Translations under genes and position numbers: made by a program
Assembly (NCBI GenBank): GCA_047635075.1
Contig: JBLIIN010000001.1
Location: 1 to 28,813, forward strand
DNA from: Methylophagaceae bacterium
GTDB lineage: Bacteria; Pseudomonadota; Gammaproteobacteria; Nitrosococcales; Methylophagaceae
DNA length: 28,813 nucleotides
Direction: 5' to 3'
Notes under the pieces: generated by a model
Told to the model about the DNA's origin: nothing
Seen by the model: only the letters and a program-made list of their open reading frames with translations
The model's database searches: none
Shown: positions 1,584 through 17,080 of the stretch, piece after piece
Layout of the letters: the number at the start of each line of letters is the position of its first letter
Position numbering within the stretch: position 1 is the stretch's first letter

Positions 1584-2501
1584 GTGATAAAGCAACGAAC
1601 ATTGAAAAATGTAATTCGTGCCACCGGTGTTGGTTTACACAGCGGGGACACTGTTTATTTGACCTTACGTCCAGCTGCACCCAATACCGGCATCATATTT
1701 CGACGAGTGGATCTTGAACCCATTGTTGAAATTAGTGCCAAAGCCAAGAATGTAGGGGAGACAGCATTATCAACCACATTGGTTGAGCATGGCCAGAAAG
1801 TCTCAACAGTAGAACATTTACTGTCCGCTTTTGCGGGTCTGGGGATTGATAACGCCTATATCGATCTCAATGCGGCAGAAGTCCCCATCATGGATGGTAG
1901 TGCAGGCCCTTTCGTTTTTCTTATTCAATCTGCAGGTATAGAAGAACAAGATGCAGCAAAACAATTTATCCGTATCAAAAAGCCAATTATTCTAGAAGAT
2001 GGTGACAAATGGGCGAAGTTTGAACCGTTTGAAGGTTTTAAAGTGAGCTTTACGATAGATTTTCAACACCCAGTATTTACAGGCCGACCACAAAAAGTAG
2101 AAGTCGATTTCTCCTCAACGTCTTTTGTTCGTGAAGTGAGTCGTGCTCGTACCTTTGGGTTTATGAAAGACATCGAAAAGTTACGTGAAAATAATTTGGC
2201 GCTCGGTGGCAGTATGGATAATGCTATCGTCGTCGATGATTACCGTGTCGTCAATGAAGATGGTTTACGCTATGAAGATGAGTTTGTACGCCACAAGGTT
2301 TTGGATGCTATTGGTGATCTATATCTACTGGGATATAGTTTGATTGGTGCTTTCAGTGGATATAAATCGGGGCATGAAGTCAACAATATGCTATTACGAA
2401 AGTTATTAGAAGATGATGACGCTTGGGAGCTAGTCACTTTCGAGAACGATGAAAAAGCACCTATTGTGTTTAGTAGACCCGCTGCCTCTATTATGGGTTA
2501 A
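1584..2501 (+). CDS. lpxC: UDP-3-O-acyl-N-acetylglucosamine deacetylase LpxC (305 aa)
   Basis: KQRTLK N-terminus, [26 protein letters not shown] and KSGH motifs. Start moved to GTG 1584 because AGAGG at 1571-1575 is 8 nt upstream and this gives the canonical MIKQRTL start. Confidence 0.98.
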
Positions 2502-9553: not shown

Positions 9554-10168
9554 CTATAGAACAGTATCAGTCCGAAACCAGCCGGCAATACTATAACGAT
9601 CACGCATGGCGGCTAACACTTCATGGGGAAACTGTTCGCTCAAGAACAACACCAAAGTCCCCATCTTAGGCTCCACGGCTTGTAATTTCACCCCAGTATT
9701 GGGTTGATAGAGAATAAAATGTCCCTGATCTAGGCTAGACCACTCAGGATTCAAGTAAAACACACTGGATATAATTCGGTTTGATTGACCTTTAAAGGCA
9801 TCGATATGACGTTGGTAAAAATGCCCCGGTGGATAATGAGAAAAGTGCGCTTCATAATCCCTTAAGCCAAGGAATAATTTTCGATTTAATTGGGTTTTCA
9901 GCGTGTCCATTGCATTTAAATAAGCTTGCTCAATCGGGTGAGCATTAGACAGCCATCGTGTTTTATCATTCCTGACCGTATCAAGTTGTTGAACAGATTG
10001 TAGTCGGCCCACTTTGGCCGTGTTGAAAGCAGATTCTGGCAATGTGCTGACATGCTGATAAAGTTGTTGCGTTAGAGTAGGTTTGATAAATTCAGTCAGG
10101 ATAATATAACCCTGCTCGGATAAGGTCTCAGCGATAACATCGACATCAATACCCATTGATTTAAGCAA
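9554..10168 (-). CDS. 2OG-Fe(II) oxygenase, prolyl-4-hydroxylase/SM-20-like
   Basis: YEAHFSHYPPGHFYQRHID (HxD), SSVFYLN, LVLFLSEQFPHEV (distal His) and RYSIAGWFR (2OG-binding Arg). Start is either TTG 10168 or ATG 10156. Confidence 0.9.
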   Translation of the reverse strand: MLKSMGIDVDVIAETLSEQGYIILTEFIKPTLTQQLYQHVSTLPESAFNTAKVGRLQSVQQLDTVRNDKTRWLSNAHPIEQAYLNAMDTLKTQLNRKLFLGLRDYEAHFSHYPPGHFYQRHIDAFKGQSNRIISSVFYLNPEWSSLDQGHFILYQPNTGVKLQAVEPKMGTLVLFLSEQFPHEVLAAMRDRYSIAGWFRTDTVL

Positions 10169-11390
10169 AGAACCAATAAGTCACCCCGATGGCGGCAACA
10201 ATACCCGCAAAATCAGCAGCTAAACCACAAGCCGCTGCATGGCGTATTTTTTTAATACCAACTGATCCAAAATAAACTGCGAGCACATAAAAAGTCGTTT
10301 CGGTGCTGCCTTGCACAATGGACGATAAGCGACCGGCAAAAGAATCGGCACCATGAACTTGCATAGTATCGATCATCATTGCCCTAGCACCACTTCCACT
10401 AAACGGTTTCATTAATGCGGTGGGAAGGGCATCTATAAAGCGATCATCTAGCCCAAAAGATAAAATCACTCCACGTAAGGCATCAGCCATTAAGTCCAAA
10501 GCACCACTGGCGCGAAAGACGCCAATGGCCACCAACATAGCGACAAGGTAGGGAATGATTGTTATTGCGGTCTCAAAGCCTTCTTTGGCACCGTCAATAA
10601 AAGCTTCATAAGCATTTACTTTTTTAATCACCGCCCCAGAGATAAACAACATGACCAGTGAAAATAAAAACACATTACTAATTAAAGCAGATTGCTCCAA
10701 CATCACACTCTGAGACAAGCTAGAGAAATAAGCCAATAAGCCAAAAACAAACACAGAAAAACCAACTAGATAAGCCAATATGACTCTATCTAACAGATTA
10801 ATTTTCTGAACAGCTGAGACGGTGAGTAAACCAATTAACGTCGAGGCATAGGTTGCAATGAGAATGGGAATGAAGACATCAGTTGGATTCGCCGCACCCA
10901 TTTGAGCACGATAGGTGAAAATAGTGACTGGAAATAATGTGACTGCCGACGTATTGATGACCAAAAATAAAATTTGAGCATTACTAGCGGTATCTTTGAG
11001 CGGGTTAAGCTTTTGCAATTCTTGCATCGCCTTAATGCCTAATGGCGTCGCTGCATTATCTAGGCCCAAAGCATTGGCCGACATATTCATCACCATCGCG
11101 CCGAGCGCGGGATGATTTATAGGGACTTCAGGCATTAAGCGCTCAAATAAAGGGCTCAGCCAAGTTGTCAACACGCGAATAAAGCCACTGCGCTCGCCAA
11201 TTTTCATAATGCCCAGCCACAAAGCCAATATCCCCGTCAGACCCAAAGCAATTTCAAACGCGGTTTTAGACAAACTAAACATTGCTGTCATCATTTGACC
11301 GAATATGGCCGTATCGCCAAAAGCCAATAGCTTGATTAACGCCACCACAAAGGCCGCAGCAAAAAAGAAGATCCAGATGAAATTTAGCAT
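10161..11390 (-). CDS. SpmA-SpmB fusion / nucleoside recognition (Gate) domain membrane protein
   Basis: SpmA-like 'NMSANALGLDNAATPLGIKAMQEL' and 'INTSAVTLFP', plus SpmB-like 'KPFSGSGA...GSTETTFYVLAVYFGSVG'. Polytopic. Confidence 0.88.
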   Translation of the reverse strand: MLNFIWIFFFAAAFVVALIKLLAFGDTAIFGQMMTAMFSLSKTAFEIALGLTGILALWLGIMKIGERSGFIRVLTTWLSPLFERLMPEVPINHPALGAMVMNMSANALGLDNAATPLGIKAMQELQKLNPLKDTASNAQILFLVINTSAVTLFPVTIFTYRAQMGAANPTDVFIPILIATYASTLIGLLTVSAVQKINLLDRVILAYLVGFSVFVFGLLAYFSSLSQSVMLEQSALISNVFLFSLVMLFISGAVIKKVNAYEAFIDGAKEGFETAITIIPYLVAMLVAIGVFRASGALDLMADALRGVILSFGLDDRFIDALPTALMKPFSGSGARAMMIDTMQVHGADSFAGRLSSIVQGSTETTFYVLAVYFGSVGIKKIRHAAACGLAADFAGIVAAIGVTYWFFA

Positions 11391-11579
11391 AGTGTCATTC
11401 TACAGGGTGACTTCGTAAGGTGAAGCGTTATATGAGGCGATATAAACGAGAGGTGAAATATTTACTTTTTATATGTCGATAGTTTTATGTTATTCCTTAC
11501 GATACTATTTGGAAACATATGATAAAGAATATTAACCTCTTTTTTTCACCATTAAAGAAGTCATATGCACAATAAACTG

Positions 11580-11627
11580 ATGGAATAATTGTGACAAAAC
11601 AGAAAATAAATCTGTCCCCTTTTACTG
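11580..11627 (+). repeat. 48-nt imperfect direct repeat, copy 1
   Basis: ATGGAATAATT-N13-AAATAAATCTGTCCCCTTTTACTG. Ungapped 38/48 match to 13248-13295 (counted by hand). Bases 11604-11622 are an 18/19 inverted match to 13186-13204. Confidence 0.8.
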
Positions 11628-11686
11628 GTGGGGCTACTTCCGAAAGCCAAGGGGGTGTGCGTTAAATTTACAGGTAGAACTAAGCA

Positions 11687-12280
11687 ATGATTAGTCCGAT
11701 CGAAATATTCAGAGAATATTGGGAACAAGCTAGATCCCTTGGAGATGCAAGCGCGGCCTATTGCACACTGGCGACTGTTTCAGAAGATGGACAAGTTTCA
11801 ACTCGGACTTTGGTATTGAGGGAAGTAACCGATGATTCATTTGTAATCTTTATTAACAACACCTCTCCCAAGTGGAAACAACTCGACCACTCCAACCACA
11901 TAGAGGTATTGGTTTTTTGGCCTAGCTTGATGCAGCAGTATCGAATACGAGGTCAATTGGAGAGCATACCAAAGGAAAAAATGAGACTGCATTGGGCCAA
12001 TAAACCCTATGACGCAAAGATAATCGATAACTACTATAAGGACTATCAACCAGAATCAAGTGTGCTGGATTCCAAAGATACACTTCTAGCAGGTATCAAT
12101 AATCTTAAAAATAGTTACCCAAAGGACGCTGATGTTCCTTTCCCCTCAAATGTTGGAGGTGTGAGAATTAAAGCAAATTATATCGAAAGCTGGCAAGGAT
12201 CAAACGCGGACCGATTACATGAAAGACATCTATACGAGCTATCGGGCAATCAATGGGAAAGAACTACTCTGGTTCCATGA
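11687..12280 (+). CDS. Pyridoxamine 5'-phosphate oxidase-like FMN-binding protein
   Basis: CTLATV..DGQVSTRTLVLR, SPKWKQL, VFWPSLMQQYRIRG and IESWQG...RLHER resemble the PdxH/PNPOx fold. Not claimed to be the true pdxH. Confidence 0.8.
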   Translation: MISPIEIFREYWEQARSLGDASAAYCTLATVSEDGQVSTRTLVLREVTDDSFVIFINNTSPKWKQLDHSNHIEVLVFWPSLMQQYRIRGQLESIPKEKMRLHWANKPYDAKIIDNYYKDYQPESSVLDSKDTLLAGINNLKNSYPKDADVPFPSNVGGVRIKANYIESWQGSNADRLHERHLYELSGNQWERTTLVP

Positions 12281-12289
12281 ATAGGAAAA

Positions 12290-12350
12290 ACCTAACAATC
12301 ACAGCAAGTAGGAACTCGCAGATGCTGGTTCGCTGCAATGGGCGTTAGGC
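12290..12350 (+). mobile_element. Degenerate integron attC-like recombination site (61 nt)
   Basis: Starts ACCTAAC (RYYYAAC) 9 nt after the stop codon and ends GTTAGGC (GTTRRRY). Inner pairs CAGC/GCTG and GAAC/GTTC. The L-box register is non-canonical with a 6-nt bulge. Confidence 0.5.
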
Positions 12351-12497
12351 TGCCTGCGACACACCAAAAAATGGCTAACCCTATAGCTGAGATTCACTAG
12401 GGTCGGTGTAGATTGATTTATATTAAACTTAAACAGCTATCGGGCCATTTAATAGTTTGCAATGCAGCATTAAAATGTAGCCTATGGAACGACTTTG

Positions 12498-12863
12498 TTA
12501 AGTCCCACTCTGCCTAGCTCGGCGAGCTGCAATAAAGCTTTTAATATACACCACTAGGGCAAACAGACTGACAGCCATCATAACGCCCACTCGAAACACG
12601 GCATCCATATCATCGCGGCCGATGGAGCTTGTCAGCGGCATGATTAGCGCTATCGAAAGTAGTAGGGTCAATCCAACAACGATGTGAGCAACAACTTTAT
12701 TTTCCTTTTTAAAAGGCAGAGCCAACAAGGCCAGAACAACGCCAAAAATCACTGGGATCAATATCGTGATAGAGCGGGACTCTGCAGCTACATTCAGATA
12801 AGCCCATAGGCCAAATACGATTAAAACGGCGGCGTTAAGAATAGTTGCTTGATATGGCTTCAT
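12498..12863 (-). CDS. Small four-TM hypothetical membrane protein (121 aa)
   Basis: Four hydrophobic segments and a GAGAG RBS. 'KENKVVAHIVV' and 'SFIAARR' look like a conserved uncharacterised family. Confidence 0.75.
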   Translation of the reverse strand: MKPYQATILNAAVLIVFGLWAYLNVAAESRSITILIPVIFGVVLALLALPFKKENKVVAHIVVGLTLLLSIALIMPLTSSIGRDDMDAVFRVGVMMAVSLFALVVYIKSFIAARRARQSGT

Positions 12864-12908
12864 TTGTCTCTCTCAGTTTCTCAGCGAAAAATATAGTGTC
12901 GGAATCGA

Positions 12909-13112
12909 TTAAAAGTCTACTTGCGAGCACAGCGCATACGCAGTATGAGTTCTACTGTTTGACGTAAAACCAAGAAGGCGTGAAATGTCTTTGTTAGCTA
13001 TCATGTCATCATAACGCAATAGTATCATTAAGCGATTCTTTTTCGAGCACTGAAACAGTGTAAATTGCATTGTTAATGCTGACAGAGATTGAACCTCAGG
13101 TAGAAAAATCAA
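12909..13112 (-). pseudogene. Possible relic of an ECF sigma factor region 4
   Basis: 'RLMILLRYDDMIANKDISRLLG' resembles the region-4 pattern. A shifted frame continues 'TVELILRMRCARK*'. Weak resemblance only. Confidence 0.2.
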
Positions 13113-13185
13113 GACTGAAAATCAAGGGGCCAGCTAGCTTTATTTCGATTAATAACCCAAAAATTCCGACTCCTTATTAGGCAAG

Positions 13186-13290
13186 AAAGGGGACAGAATT
13201 ATTTAATTAAGCATTCGATAAACCATGTTGGAAACTTAACGGAAATAATGGAATAATTCACACGAATTACAAAATAAATCGGTCACTTTT
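13186..13290. repeat. 105-bp element with imperfect 19-bp terminal inverted repeats (MITE/REPIN-like)
   Basis: Left end AAAGGGGACAGAATTATTT (13186-13204) and right end AAATAAATCGGTCACTTTT (13272-13290), 15/19 complementary. No target-site duplication seen. Confidence 0.6.
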
Positions 13291-13295
13291 TACTG
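13248..13295 (+). repeat. 48-nt imperfect direct repeat, copy 2
   Basis: ATGGAATAATT-N13-AAATAAATCGGTCACTTTTTACTG, with the same spacing as 11580-11627. Ends 9 nt before the MOSC ATG. Confidence 0.8.
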
Positions 13296-13304
13296 AGAAT
13301 AAAA

Positions 13305-14162
13305 ATGACAAAGATTGGAGAAGTAAAAGAAATTTGGCGCTACCCAGTCAAAGGGATGGCGGGTGAGCAACCGGAGAAATGCGCCATTGGACCGTTAGGG
13401 CTAGAAGGTGACTGAATCTGGGCAGTGCGTGATGTAGCGCGAAGTGAAATACATAGTTGCAAGTTCCGTCCCGAGTTGTTGACGTGCAAAGCCAGTAGCC
13501 ATAGTGACCAAGCTAGACGCGATGTTGAAGTCACCTTCTCGGATGACACTTCTCTGAATAGCAACGAACCTGCTATCGATCAACGGCTATCTGAACTTGT
13601 TGGATATCAATCGACATTAGAGCCGCTAAAACCATTAACGGAACTGGACTTTTATCGTCGTCACAAACGTGATGCTGATAGTTGATTGGAAGAATTAAAA
13701 GAGACTTTTACCCGCGAATCGGGCGAGCCTTATCCTGATTTCAGCTCGCTACCCCAACAAGCCAAAGATTTTGTTACCGTGCCGGGCACTTTTTTTCTAG
13801 TGACACCTTTTCATCTGCTGTCTACACCAACAATAAATTACCTTAAGAATCAGCTCCCAGAGGCTGACTGGGATGTTCGGCGTTTTCGGCCGAATATCGT
13901 TATTGATACCGGCAGCAGGGATCTTGGACTAGTCGAGCAGGACTGGATTGGTAAACAAATAGCGATTGGTAGTCCATTAATTGACTGTACTGCCACAGCA
14001 CCACGTTGTGGGGCTGTCACGCGCGAACAAAATGGACTTGGTTTTGATAAGTCTATGATCCGGACCATCATAAAAAAAGCCGATCAAAACTTAGGGAGCT
14101 ACGGCAGTGTCAAGCAACAGGGCCAACTCTGCGTTGGGGAGTCGATTTATATTAGCGATTAG
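13305..14162 (+). pseudogene. MOSC domain protein pseudogene (two in-frame TGA stops)
   Basis: One frame from ATG 13305: IWRYPVKGM...GD*IWAV (TGA 13413-13415) ...DADS*LEEL (TGA 13683-13685) ...RRFRPNIVI...PRCGAVT (conserved MOSC Cys). Joins ORFs 13425-13685 and 13686-14162. Confidence 0.9.
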
Positions 14163-14337
14163 AAATAGCCTAGTTAAGATTAGAGCCTTGATGTTGATTC
14201 CAAGTATACTTCGTTATGAATAAAGTCCCTCTTCGTAGACATTGACAGTAAGCCGTTAACCAAGGTGGATTGAGTGTGTTTTGTCTGACTTGGATGGCGT
14301 ATTAATAATATTGAGCTTAGTTAAAAGTGACTAAATC

Positions 14338-15474
14338 ATGACACGTATTTTTGAAGTATTTTATCGGTTTCTCATCTTAGGCTGTATCAGCTTTGGCGGA
14401 CCTGCTGCACATATAGGTTATTTCCAGAACGCATTTGTACAAAAGCTCAAATGGTTGGATGAAGATGCCTATGGAAAATTAGTGGCACTCAGTCAGTTTT
14501 TGCCTGGGCCAGGCTCAAGTCAAGTTGGTTTTGCAATTGGACTTCGCAGGGCTGGATTAGCCGGTGGTATTGCAGCATTTATTGGGTTCACATTACCTTC
14601 ATTTGTATTATTATATTTTCTGGCAACTTTGGCTTTTGATGCTAATACCGGCGCAACACTGGAGGGTATGGTTCATGGGTTGAAGTTACTGGCAGTCGTC
14701 GTTGTTGCCGATGCCAGTTTGAGCATGTTCAAGTCCTTTTGCAAAGACCGATTTTCGATATCCTTGATGATTATATCCACCGTTTGTATTTTGTCGATAT
14801 CTAGCCTCTGGACCCAAATTGGGGTGTTATTGTTCTCAGCCATTACTGGGGCAATCTTCGCGTCCTCGACAGAGAAAAAGCAAAATGAGACAGGGCGCAT
14901 TGATATCAAACGTCTTCCATTGGCTATTTTCTTTATTTTATTTTTTGGTTTGCCATTCGTCGGCTCGGATCTTTTATCAAATTTTTATCAAGCAGGGAGC
15001 TTGGTGTTTGGCGGCGGACATGTTGTGCTTCCATTATTGCAACAGACTTTGGGCGACACGGTGACTAATGACCAATTCTTAACGGGTTATGCGGCGGCAC
15101 AAGCGATACCAGGACCAATGTTTACATTAGCGGCTTTCTTAGGGGCAGATTTGCTACCTGCACAGCCACTATTAGGTGCGTCATTAGCTACATTAGCTAT
15201 TTTTCTACCCGGTTTCTTATTAATCTATAGTTTGCAAGACGCTTGGGAATCGCTAACACAAAATTCAAAAGTGGCTGGCGCCGCGGCAGCAATCAACGCG
15301 TCGGTTGTAGGCTTACTTGTCTCGGCCCTATATAACCCTGTTTTTATCAGCGCGGTTATTCAACCGACTGACATGGCAGTGGCCGTTTCAGGCTTTTTTG
15401 CGTTAAGAGTGATGAAGTTGCCTATTATTGTTCTAGTACTAGCCATGTCTGTCATCGGTATTTTTCTGCTGTAG
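14338..15474 (+). CDS. chrA: Chromate efflux transporter, long-chain CHR family
   Basis: Two CHR repeats: SFGGPAAHIG...SQFLPGPGSSQ and VFGGGHVVLPLL...AQAIPGPMF. Confidence 0.93.
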   Translation: MTRIFEVFYRFLILGCISFGGPAAHIGYFQNAFVQKLKWLDEDAYGKLVALSQFLPGPGSSQVGFAIGLRRAGLAGGIAAFIGFTLPSFVLLYFLATLAFDANTGATLEGMVHGLKLLAVVVVADASLSMFKSFCKDRFSISLMIISTVCILSISSLWTQIGVLLFSAITGAIFASSTEKKQNETGRIDIKRLPLAIFFILFFGLPFVGSDLLSNFYQAGSLVFGGGHVVLPLLQQTLGDTVTNDQFLTGYAAAQAIPGPMFTLAAFLGADLLPAQPLLGASLATLAIFLPGFLLIYSLQDAWESLTQNSKVAGAAAAINASVVGLLVSALYNPVFISAVIQPTDMAVAVSGFFALRVMKLPIIVLVLAMSVIGIFLL

Positions 15475-15738
15475 CAAGTCGTTTTTTGCTTTCTTATCAG
15501 CTGCGCGAATACTACGAGCTCCCCTGTTGAGTAAAAAAAAGCTGATAAAACCTGAAACGACTGAGAGAAGTAGCGCGAGATGGGGATTTTGACAACGCGC
15601 ATACTCATGAAACAGCGAGAAATGCCCCTGACAAAATTCATTAGCTACATAAGCTGCTGAAAAATACCAAGCCAGTCCCCACAGAGCAGCAGGGAAGACA
15701 ATGAGCGACAAGATGATAAGAGTGAAGCCTTTTTTCAT
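15439..15738 (-). CDS. Hypothetical two-TM membrane protein (99 aa)
   Basis: AGGA RBS shortly upstream of the ATG. Two hydrophobic segments flank a loop with two Cys. Overlaps the chrA 3' end by 36 nt. Confidence 0.55.
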   Translation of the reverse strand: MKKGFTLIILSLIVFPAALWGLAWYFSAAYVANEFCQGHFSLFHEYARCQNPHLALLLSVVSGFISFFLLNRGARSIRAADKKAKNDLLQQKNTDDRHG

Positions 15739-15947
15739 TTTTAATCCTATAGTTTAGATCTAGTTTAGAGTGTTTAAGCACTGATAATCAAGGAATATTA
15801 TATCGAAATGAAATCGTGTTTTAATTGGAATCTTTATAAAATATAGCTGTCATAAGAATTGCAGAAGCTGTTTATCTCCTCAGTAAAATTGATAGCTCTG
15901 CAAGTTAAAGTATCTATAGCAAGCAACTTTAATATGTGCAGTATTGG

Positions 15948-15976
15948 CCTCCAGTATTTATACTGGGGGTTTTTTT
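15948..15976 (+). terminator. Rho-independent terminator with no adjacent + strand gene
   Basis: CCTCCAGTA-TTTA-TACTGGGGG stem-loop followed by 7 T. Confidence 0.7.
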
Positions 15977-16861
15977 ATAATAATGAAATGTTGGTTTTGG
16001 GATAAATAAAGCGAGTTAGTGGCTAAAAAAAACGGACTGTCAATGCAACTAGAGAAGGTTAGTTGTAAAATTCAATATAGAAACGATCTGAATTTATCGA
16101 GTGAATATAAAGCAATATTGTTGGTTCTATGACACCGTATTGTTTTGTAGATAAGGGGAATATTGCTTGCTTGGCCACTATAACGGTATAGCCAAGTCCA
16201 CCCTCTAGCTCATCGATCTGTCACCAACCTCCAACTTGGCTCTGATGCTCTTTTAATAAGCCTTTAAGTATAGTGCGTTCGGTTAGCTCGGCTGTTTTTA
16301 TTATATGCTTTGATACTTTTTGGCGAAGGCTTCATTTGCGCTCCTTACTGATTAAAGTAAACCACTCTTAACAGCACCACATTACTTTCTTTAACCAAGT
16401 CAGCAAGGATATATTGACCTATGTAATCGATTTACTGATGCTGCTCTGCACACAACATGGTTTTCAGTGAACAGCTGAGGTTAAGCCGACAGGGTTGATT
16501 GGTAGAATCGACAAGACGGGCGTTGACTAATTTTGGGACAATCTTCATCATGCGGCTTCGAAAAATATCAAAATACGTTACTATCTCTTGAATCGTTGCC
16601 GAGTGTTTCACAGGAAGTATGGCTCTAAGTAGATTAAAACTCAATGCAGTGTCAATTGCATAGATACTAATTTCACTCAATGAATAAGGATTGGTTTTGC
16701 AGTTTTCGGATGCGGAATATAAACGTGTAATGTATAGTTGTCCCGATTCATAGGGTAAGCAAACTCAAAAAAAATGGTCTAAGCAGAGGAATTATGCGTA
16801 CTATCAGACGCTATTTTGGTTTGTTTTTTATTGATTCATAAAAGCGAGTGAATGAGAAGAG

Positions 16862-17080
16862 ATGTCAGAGCAGAAAGATCCTACAATAGGCTATATTATT
16901 TGGAGCGTGCTTTGCGCTTTTTTCGGGGTTTCAAATAAAGAGAATTATGATCGCGATAGAGCTTACATTGAGAAAGTGGGCGTAAGGCCTTATCTTTATG
17001 CTGGCATCATATTAACGATGTGTTTCGCTTTATCAGTCTGGGCAGTTGTACAGATAGTATTAAGTAATGTAGCAGCTTAA
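16862..17080 (+). CDS. DUF2970 family small membrane protein
   Basis: 'SVLCAFFGV...NYDRD...PYLYAGIILT' fits the DUF2970 pattern. Followed by a strong terminator. Confidence 0.8.
   Translation: MSEQKDPTIGYIIWSVLCAFFGVSNKENYDRDRAYIEKVGVRPYLYAGIILTMCFALSVWAVVQIVLSNVAA

Follow-up and report, generated by a model that had tools for sequence, protein, structure and literature searches.

Short repeats in a species-specific islet of a Methylophagaceae contig as probable gene-less copies of TIRtron terminal inverted repeats

The DNA examined here is a 28,813-nt stretch from a Methylophagaceae bacterium (GenBank assembly GCA_047635075.1, contig JBLIIN010000001.1; hereafter the window), which constitutes one entire contig of its source metagenome-assembled genome (MAG), designated G000 (60.55% complete, 1.4 Mb); other G-numbers denote genomes of the same genus and L-numbers denote extracted loci. 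A family of short repeats in this window brackets a small group of accessory genes, an arrangement in which a first-pass annotation saw a candidate for an undescribed system. We consider it likely that these repeats are gene-less copies of the terminal inverted repeats (TIRs) of TIRtrons, located in a species-specific islet. The sequence of the family is new, but its class, TIRtron/TIRYT, is already known (PMC3733652), and in this respect the earlier proposal of an undescribed system does not hold.

The repeat is defined by a 19-nt core, AAATAAATCTGTCCCCTTT, which occurs exactly at 11604-11622 on the plus strand, inverted at 13186-13204 on the minus strand with one mismatch, and directly again at 13272-13290 on the plus strand with three mismatches. 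Chance matches to this core are expected 0.01 times per window, and three copies were reached in none of 100 shuffles. The pair of 48-mers originally reported at 11580-11627 and 13248-13295 was reproduced by direct alignment with 38 of 48 positions identical and without gaps, as was the agreement of the inverted core with copy 1 at 18 of 19 positions; a repeat-finder search widens the pair to 53 nt (11575-11627 and 13243-13295, 77%). The first copy (11575-11627, plus strand) is a singlet of the type that we call F, in a 'right-end' orientation, in which the exact core has 29 nt of inner flank on one side and TACTG as outer flank on the other. When reverse-complemented, the singlet core reads GGGGACAG, in accordance with the consensus GGGGWSAS; this sequence is present also in 13186-13204, and is decayed to GTGACCGA in 13272-13290. 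The latter two copies are the arms of an inverted F-type dimer. The left arm (13186-13204, minus strand, 'left-end' orientation) reads AAAGGGGACAGAATTATTT on the plus strand, the spacer (13205-13271) is 67 nt in length, at the upper end of the usual dimer range, with its last 29 nt similar to the inner flank of copy 1, and in the right arm (13272-13290, plus strand, 'right-end' orientation) the GGGG core is broken. A decayed TIR of a second type (B-type, ATCAAGGGGTCAGCCAGCTTGAT), in 'left-end' orientation and with three mismatches, is situated at 13121-13143 on the plus strand, and the DNA around it (13105-13145) matches G022 and G006 among the 40 relatives compared. A singlet, a dimer and a group of mixed type are thereby all represented in the window.

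Copy 1 ends 59 nt 5' of the ATG of a PNPOx-like gene (11687) and copy 3 ends 9 nt 5' of the ATG of a MOSC frame (13305), in agreement with the upstream placement that had been described for both. As copies 1 and 3 have in common both the 29 nt of inner flank and the 5 nt of outer flank (TACTG), their sequences indicate that a unit exceeding the core was copied locally to give one from the other. A third copy of G000, on contig C136, has TACTG alone in common with these two; the flank is confined to these three copies of G000, no other genome having shown it. When 11430-11690 was aligned with gaps to 13100-13310, no convincing left partner for copy 1 emerged beyond the 53 nt, the predicted folds of the singlet, the dimer and an attC-like site (discussed below) did not beat shuffles, and an Rfam search of 11300-16900 and two related loci returned no match.

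RAYT-like genes located between long terminal inverted repeats have been described as TIRtrons, and their proteins as TIRYT (Di Nocera, De Gregorio & Rocco 2013, BMC Genomics 14:522, PMC3733652); many TIRtron TIRs have GGGGWSAS in common, and they form "moderately abundant families" as singles, dimers and clusters (PMC3733652). TIRYT proteins constitute TnpA-Y1 subclass 2.1, with the consensus GGGG[AT][CG]A[CG], a subclass that includes 291 of the 292 RAYT group 1 proteins (Quentin et al. 2018, PMC6006769). Group 1 is the most widely spread RAYT group, with 21 classes, and its flanking 16-mers average 12 copies, with some sign of horizontal transfer (Bertels et al. 2017, PMC5581495).

The first-pass annotation had advised a search for HUH/Y1 (RAYT-like) genes near the motif, and such an association was found. 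In Pseudomonas brassicacearum (L051) a gene for a 233-aa Y1_Tnp protein is positioned exactly between two inverted copies that are 743 nt apart (gene 1635-2336, minus strand; copies 1622-1640 and 2384-2402). The protein scores 47 bits against PF01797 (cut-off 23), 75.1 bits against the RAYT equivalog NF047646, which is below the cut-off of 80, and 23 bits against NF033573 (IS200/IS605; cut-off 55); its Pfam content is Y1_Tnp at residues 14-123 of 233 and nothing else, and a PDB sequence search with the Y1 protein gave no match. Both this protein and the Y1 protein of G006 display the HuH (NHVHL) and Y---NP (YIELNP and YVERNP) motifs, HuH with the class-2 Y---NP motif being a signature given in the literature (PMC6006769), and a C-terminal tail, ..RGQGRPRK, is conserved by eye in the Y1 proteins. 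The genus also has F-type units of its own, such as G006:C12:16450-17234 (L022 1501-2285), in which the copies are 747 nt apart. The Y1 gene of that unit is apparently frameshifted, its MPRQARI start and its 176-aa HuH open reading frame (ORF) being in different frames. A spacing of 704-866 nt is the second spacer class of inverted pairs in the family at large, and it holds a Y1 gene in the units checked (L051 and G006:C12). Furthermore, a Y1 homologue is found within ~4 kb at 21 of 120 motif loci, and the 12 Y1 matches of at least 150 aa near such loci share 51-100% identity with the L051 protein. Inverted repeats of different sequence and the same design (an A-run, GGGG[AT]C and ~10 specific bases) are found on either side of other Y1 genes of the genus, the B-type repeat being that which flanks Y1 genes in G042, G006, G043 and G055. 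It is because the repeats, in other genomes, flank RAYT-like Y1 genes in inverted orientation, and fit GGGGWSAS, that we assign them to the TIRtron class.

The expectation of a dispersed, non-autonomous repeat family was borne out. There are eight core copies in G000 (none for the reversed control), and the core was found in 20 of 40 genus genomes at 1-11 copies each, often paired and often at contig ends. A wider scan, which covered one genome per prokaryotic species (596 Gb) and accepted exact matches only, yielded the 19-mer (one Y allowed) at no fewer than 120 loci with record titles from at least 10 phyla, where about 9 chance matches are estimated. The taxa named in these titles include Pseudomonas, Stutzerimonas, Nitrospirae, Desulfobacteraceae, Acidobacteriota and Spirochaetes, as well as Aerophobetes, Coprothermobacterota, SAR324, Binatia, an anammox planctomycete and others. 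Across 239 copies the conserved block comprises 21 nt only, and the flanks are not conserved. Copies are most commonly arranged as inverted pairs, GGGGACAGATTTATTT ... AAATAAATCTGTCCCC, whose spacers are mostly 5-65 nt in length. Beyond the T-run no flank motif is enriched (AC is next in 14 of 248 copies), and a TTAC-like target was rejected, with no enrichment beside the repeat. A small leader peptide (..RKINLSPF..) was likewise rejected, as in full units the stretch in question falls just past the Y1 stop codon and other copies have no start codon.

Some further features accompany the family. A repeat of ~200 nt with an internal hairpin (GTTCGTTTTTTGG..CAAAAAATGAAC), designated 'X', is recurrent in the genus and has no Rfam match (L027 1290-1460 and 1810-1960; L224 4790-4990; G000 C96 3143-3338 and C3 24589-24754); several times an F-type TIR is found 40-75 nt away from it. 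The outer half of the TIR is in places also echoed in partial tandem, with GGGGACAA repeated ~7 times ahead of a TIR or one to three extra GTCCCCTTTT units behind it (L148 ~680-750; L060 2911; L027 2021; L028 1739; L039), and these echoes may be footprints of enzyme action. In a SAR86 MAG (L070 ~1440-1546) an F-type dimer that is almost spacerless is placed directly 3' of a tRNA gene.

Taken as TIRtron remnants, the repeats would have the following origin. A TIRtron is a small unit in which a gene for a RAYT-like Y1 (HUH) tyrosine 'transposase' (TIRYT) is held between inverted repeats with GGGGWSAS at their outer ends, and, by analogy with TnpA-REP and IS200/IS605, binding and nicking of single-stranded DNA at the TIRs by a cognate TIRYT would spread copies in trans. 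Such copies would have gathered between spmAB and chrA, in the 2.9-kb islet of sporadic genes that is particular to this species, at the spot that in a sister species is occupied by an integron platform, of which a single attC-like site may be the relic; the TIR copies and the integron would be neighbours, and not components of one machine. A number of observations weigh against this interpretation. Neither the window nor the assembled 60% of G000 yielded a Y1/TIRYT gene to a PF01797 profile or tblastn, and mobilisation in trans in the source organism therefore cannot be shown. Dimer spacers differ between genomes, where simple copying of one miniature element predicts otherwise, and neither a target-site duplication nor a conserved cleavage motif was found at the copies. 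The exact conservation of the motif across phyla is in part by construction, since the scan accepted exact matches alone. Last, we found no biochemical work on any TIRYT in the TIRtron/TIRYT papers. TIRtrons are named in only two papers of the literature searched, and we found no experiment on them. The 21-nt site recurs without change across at least 10 phyla, next to Y1 proteins whose identity has fallen to ~50-70%, and site and protein together offer a well-defined substrate and enzyme with which biochemical work on the class could begin.

The islet itself (11426-14333, 2.9 kb) contains all of the repeat copies and three sporadic genes. To its left is a conserved spmAB-like membrane gene with a Gate domain (10161-11390, minus strand; PF07670, 83 bits), present at 73-83% nucleotide identity in 23 of 24 genus genomes, and homology to relatives extends from this gene up to 11425; to its right is the conserved chromate transporter gene chrA (14338-15474, plus strand; PF02417, 231 bits). 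Homology to G013, the nearest relative, stops at 11425 and resumes at 14334, and the interval between has no DNA homology in 40 relatives save scattered bits. That the spmAB-chrA interval is a variable site, as was first suggested, is supported by the different contents of this position among species, with an integron integrase there in G013; G013, G015 and G003 have other genes at the islet position and no TIR copies there. The module recurs in four independent metagenome contigs, and as such the islet is not an assembly artefact: three contigs of the same species from other samples are 99.95-100% identical over the islet parts covered, and a fourth agrees in gene order, the only feature compared. 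One of these three same-species contigs (L237) carries an additional deletion of ~61-73 nt in the MOSC frame, around 13761-13821.

Among the islet genes, the PNPOx-like accessory gene (11687-12280, plus strand; 197 aa; PF01243, PF12766 and PF10590) has close copies in 2 of 40 genus genomes, with a single orthologue of 86% amino acid identity in the genus (G049), and the remaining matches are 29-35% identical. By blastn, 11659-12281 of the window aligns to positions 1473-2095 of the G049 locus (L205) at 90% nucleotide identity; this homology starts at an R'-like box, GTTAAAT (11661-11667, plus strand), and stops at the stop codon. The membrane gene previously noted between the copies corresponds to a 121-aa ORF on the minus strand (12498-12863), an orphan in the genus (1 of 40 genomes, with no homologue in the other 39) with a weak EpsG match below the cut-off. 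The ORF at 12909-13112, earlier taken for a possible truncated gene, has no Pfam match, and the sole outside similarity of 12864-13185 is the B-type repeat at 13121-13143, which does not bear out that view. The MOSC-domain frame (13305-14162, plus strand) contains in-frame TGA codons at 13413-13415 and 13683-13685, and is matched by PF03473 and PF03476 with X at these stops. As the two codons align to the Arg of GDR and to a Trp, respectively, of the intact G006 homologue, the frame is regarded as a pseudogene. Homologues are found in 3 of 40 genus genomes, G006 and G001 among them. The original description of two accessory plus-strand genes overlooked the two stops of the MOSC frame.

The position of the islet invites the question of what the repeats have to do with integrons. 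In G013 an integron integrase (C39:57460-58407; L170 1452-2456) is found directly beside spm, adjoining the spmAB-like gene at the islet position, with 437 bits against TIGR02249 (cut-off 265) on a contig that ends just after, and intI scores above the cut-off in 18 of 40 genus genomes, mostly at contig ends. The islet sits at a former or alternative integron site. The absence of a recombinase or transposase gene from the window, as initially stated, was upheld, and neither an integron integrase (TIGR02249 profile and tblastn) nor a Y1 type was detected in the 60%-complete G000 assembly either. The PNPOx-like gene had been described as attC-tailed, and it is indeed followed by a 61-nt attC-like site (ACCTAAC ... 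GTTAGGC; 12290-12350, plus strand), whose R boxes pair in the fold and whose layout resembles a bona fide 58-nt genus attC at L219:10926-10983; the site is plausible but weak (-7.6/-8.7 kcal/mol, z 0.18/-0.93). It is the one candidate in the window by a crude scan that used no curated attC model, and crude finders, strict-pattern or energy-filtered, separated arrays from coding DNA poorly. A second match to the attC pattern falls inside a coding region, and such matches could be of chance origin. The homology to the G049 PNPOx gene does not include the site. On balance we lean towards 12290-12350 being a real, perhaps decaying, attC.

Given this integron background, together with the attC-like site behind the PNPOx-like gene and the start of G049 homology at the GTTAAAT box, one might postulate that the repeats belong to the integron, as variant attC or attI sites or as a capture device of a decayed chromosomal integron. 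We regard this as very improbable. Boxes of the RYYYAAC/GTTRRRY kind are lacking in the 19-mer, which does not pair with itself, such that the repeats are not attC sites; the true attC sites of the genus are unrelated to them in sequence and fold at -23 to -45 kcal/mol, and the attC-like site is missing from the G049 orthologue. None of eight TIR types occurs in 81 kb around ten genus intI genes, which includes three 20-kb stretches (that of G055 was confirmed as a cassette array), and an integrase-like match was found at only 2 of the 120 cross-phylum motif loci. An attI relic in 11391-11700 was considered and rejected, as blastn against the intI loci matched only the 19-mer family and the G049 gene. 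The capture or carriage of integron cassettes by the repeats, as first envisaged, is not supported: no TIR is near these intI genes, there is a single weak attC-like site here, and the 90%-identical G049 PNPOx gene and the G006 and G001 MOSC homologues have no repeat nearby. An equally slight chance attaches to the motif being a regulatory element, either a portable promoter, as also proposed originally, or an operator for a host transcription factor that acts upon downstream accessory genes. The three window copies, and both copies on contig C12 of G000, do point at a downstream gene, and a weak promoter-like match, TTGGAA-18-AATAAT, is present in the dimer spacer. However, promoter-like sites are not enriched (12, where shuffled sequence gave 7.0 +/- 3.1) and the conserved core forms none of them, the 9 nt between copy 3 and the ATG leave too little room for a promoter, other copies are located after gene ends, after a tRNA gene or inside dimers, and the constant partner of the motif is a Y1 gene rather than a regulator.

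A somewhat better, albeit still unlikely, alternative is that the TIR copies are junctions at which accessory-gene islets insert or swap in an integron-like process driven by TIRYT, the window module being one such unit. It is comparably doubtful that integrase-independent islet exchange at the GGGG outer ends, by TIRYT acting in trans, has overwritten or replaced the integron platform beside spmAB. Several loci are consistent with junctions of this kind. In the uvrB-tRNA spacer one TIR is common to G000 and G013, and the two genomes cease to be homologous precisely at the GGGG outer end of this TIR (C136:3240), beyond which G013 has an extra TIR and a 194-aa ORF. Positions 3205-3251 of contig C59 in G000 correspond to the unoccupied form of a site that in G013 holds a 1.7-kb islet with two F-type TIRs and a 209-aa ORF. 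A 165-nt stretch is 92.7% identical between G000:C43:10047-10241 and G002:C205:842-1153 (L225), from species that are otherwise ~70% identical; it takes in the N-terminal portion of an ORF that in G002 is 169 aa long, along with the region upstream, and ends beside TIR copies in both genomes, these being of different types. G002:C205 has the same architecture as the window, with small genes between TIR clusters, and the genes adjoining F copies in G000 are sporadic in the genus. On the other hand, no TIR is found within ~1.5 kb of either the PNPOx orthologue of G049 or the MOSC homologues, and the genes therefore do not travel with the TIRs; the TIRs around the islet genes are of mixed orientation and type, unlike the products of site-specific insertion; 178 nt separate the left homology break (11425) from the closest TIR; and TIR copies are found between core genes as well, such as parE-parC in G013. 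The link between TIRs and flexible DNA may simply reflect repeats and accessory genes both collecting in permissive spacers, which accounts for the pattern without any mechanism. Were the exchange of islets at TIRs true, it would be a second route to cassette-like gene shuffling. Another variable spacer of G000, between an ADP-ribosylglycohydrolase-like gene and recC on contig C12, contains two F-type copies and one A-type-like copy (14214-14232 and 15248-15338) ahead of two small sporadic ORFs (152 and 174 aa), and an F-type copy of G015 is located 17 nt from the start of the recC-side homology.

Returning to the interpretation of the repeats as gene-less TIRtron TIRs, these gather in small species-specific islets, one of which is at an integron position, and we would caution that scans may mistake any repeat-bracketed accessory module for a new cassette system. 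The locus resembles clusters of attC sites lacking integron integrases (CALIN), or single attC sites, in being integrase-less, in having one gene followed by an attC-like site, and in that its variable interval is orthologous to the integron platform of a sister species; it differs in that there is one weak attC-like site, the repeats are not attC sites, genes are on both strands, and integron regions of the genus are without these repeats. The repeat family resembles IS200/IS605 elements (IS608, ISDra2) in that its Y1 enzyme belongs to the HUH superfamily and in a mechanism that probably involves single strands, but those elements have subterminal hairpins, no TIRs, and insertion beside a fixed tetra- or pentanucleotide, and no such flank is enriched here. 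The REP/REPIN-RAYT systems (E. coli TnpA-REP with REP/BIME; Pseudomonas REPINs) are closer in that short repeats are tied to a Y1 enzyme of single-stranded DNA, inverted doublets are able to form a long hairpin, and copies are non-autonomous. In contrast to those systems, the 19-mer of the window has no GTAG or CGTC tag and is neither self-complementary nor palindromic, there are 1-11 copies per genome rather than hundreds, dimer spacers are not conserved, and the Y1 protein scores under the RAYT equivalog cut-off. Relative to the TIRtrons described so far, the present family differs in that the exact 19-mer or 21-nt motif is absent from the text of the literature searched, the cognate gene is not among the assembled contigs, and copies are found in a variable islet where a relative has an integron integrase. 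Features common to the two are inverted repeats that surround a RAYT-like Y1 gene and carry an outer motif in keeping with GGGGWSAS, moderate numbers of gene-less copies in the form of singles, dimers and groups, several TIR types within one genus, and a broad range of taxa in which horizontal transfer has left signs.

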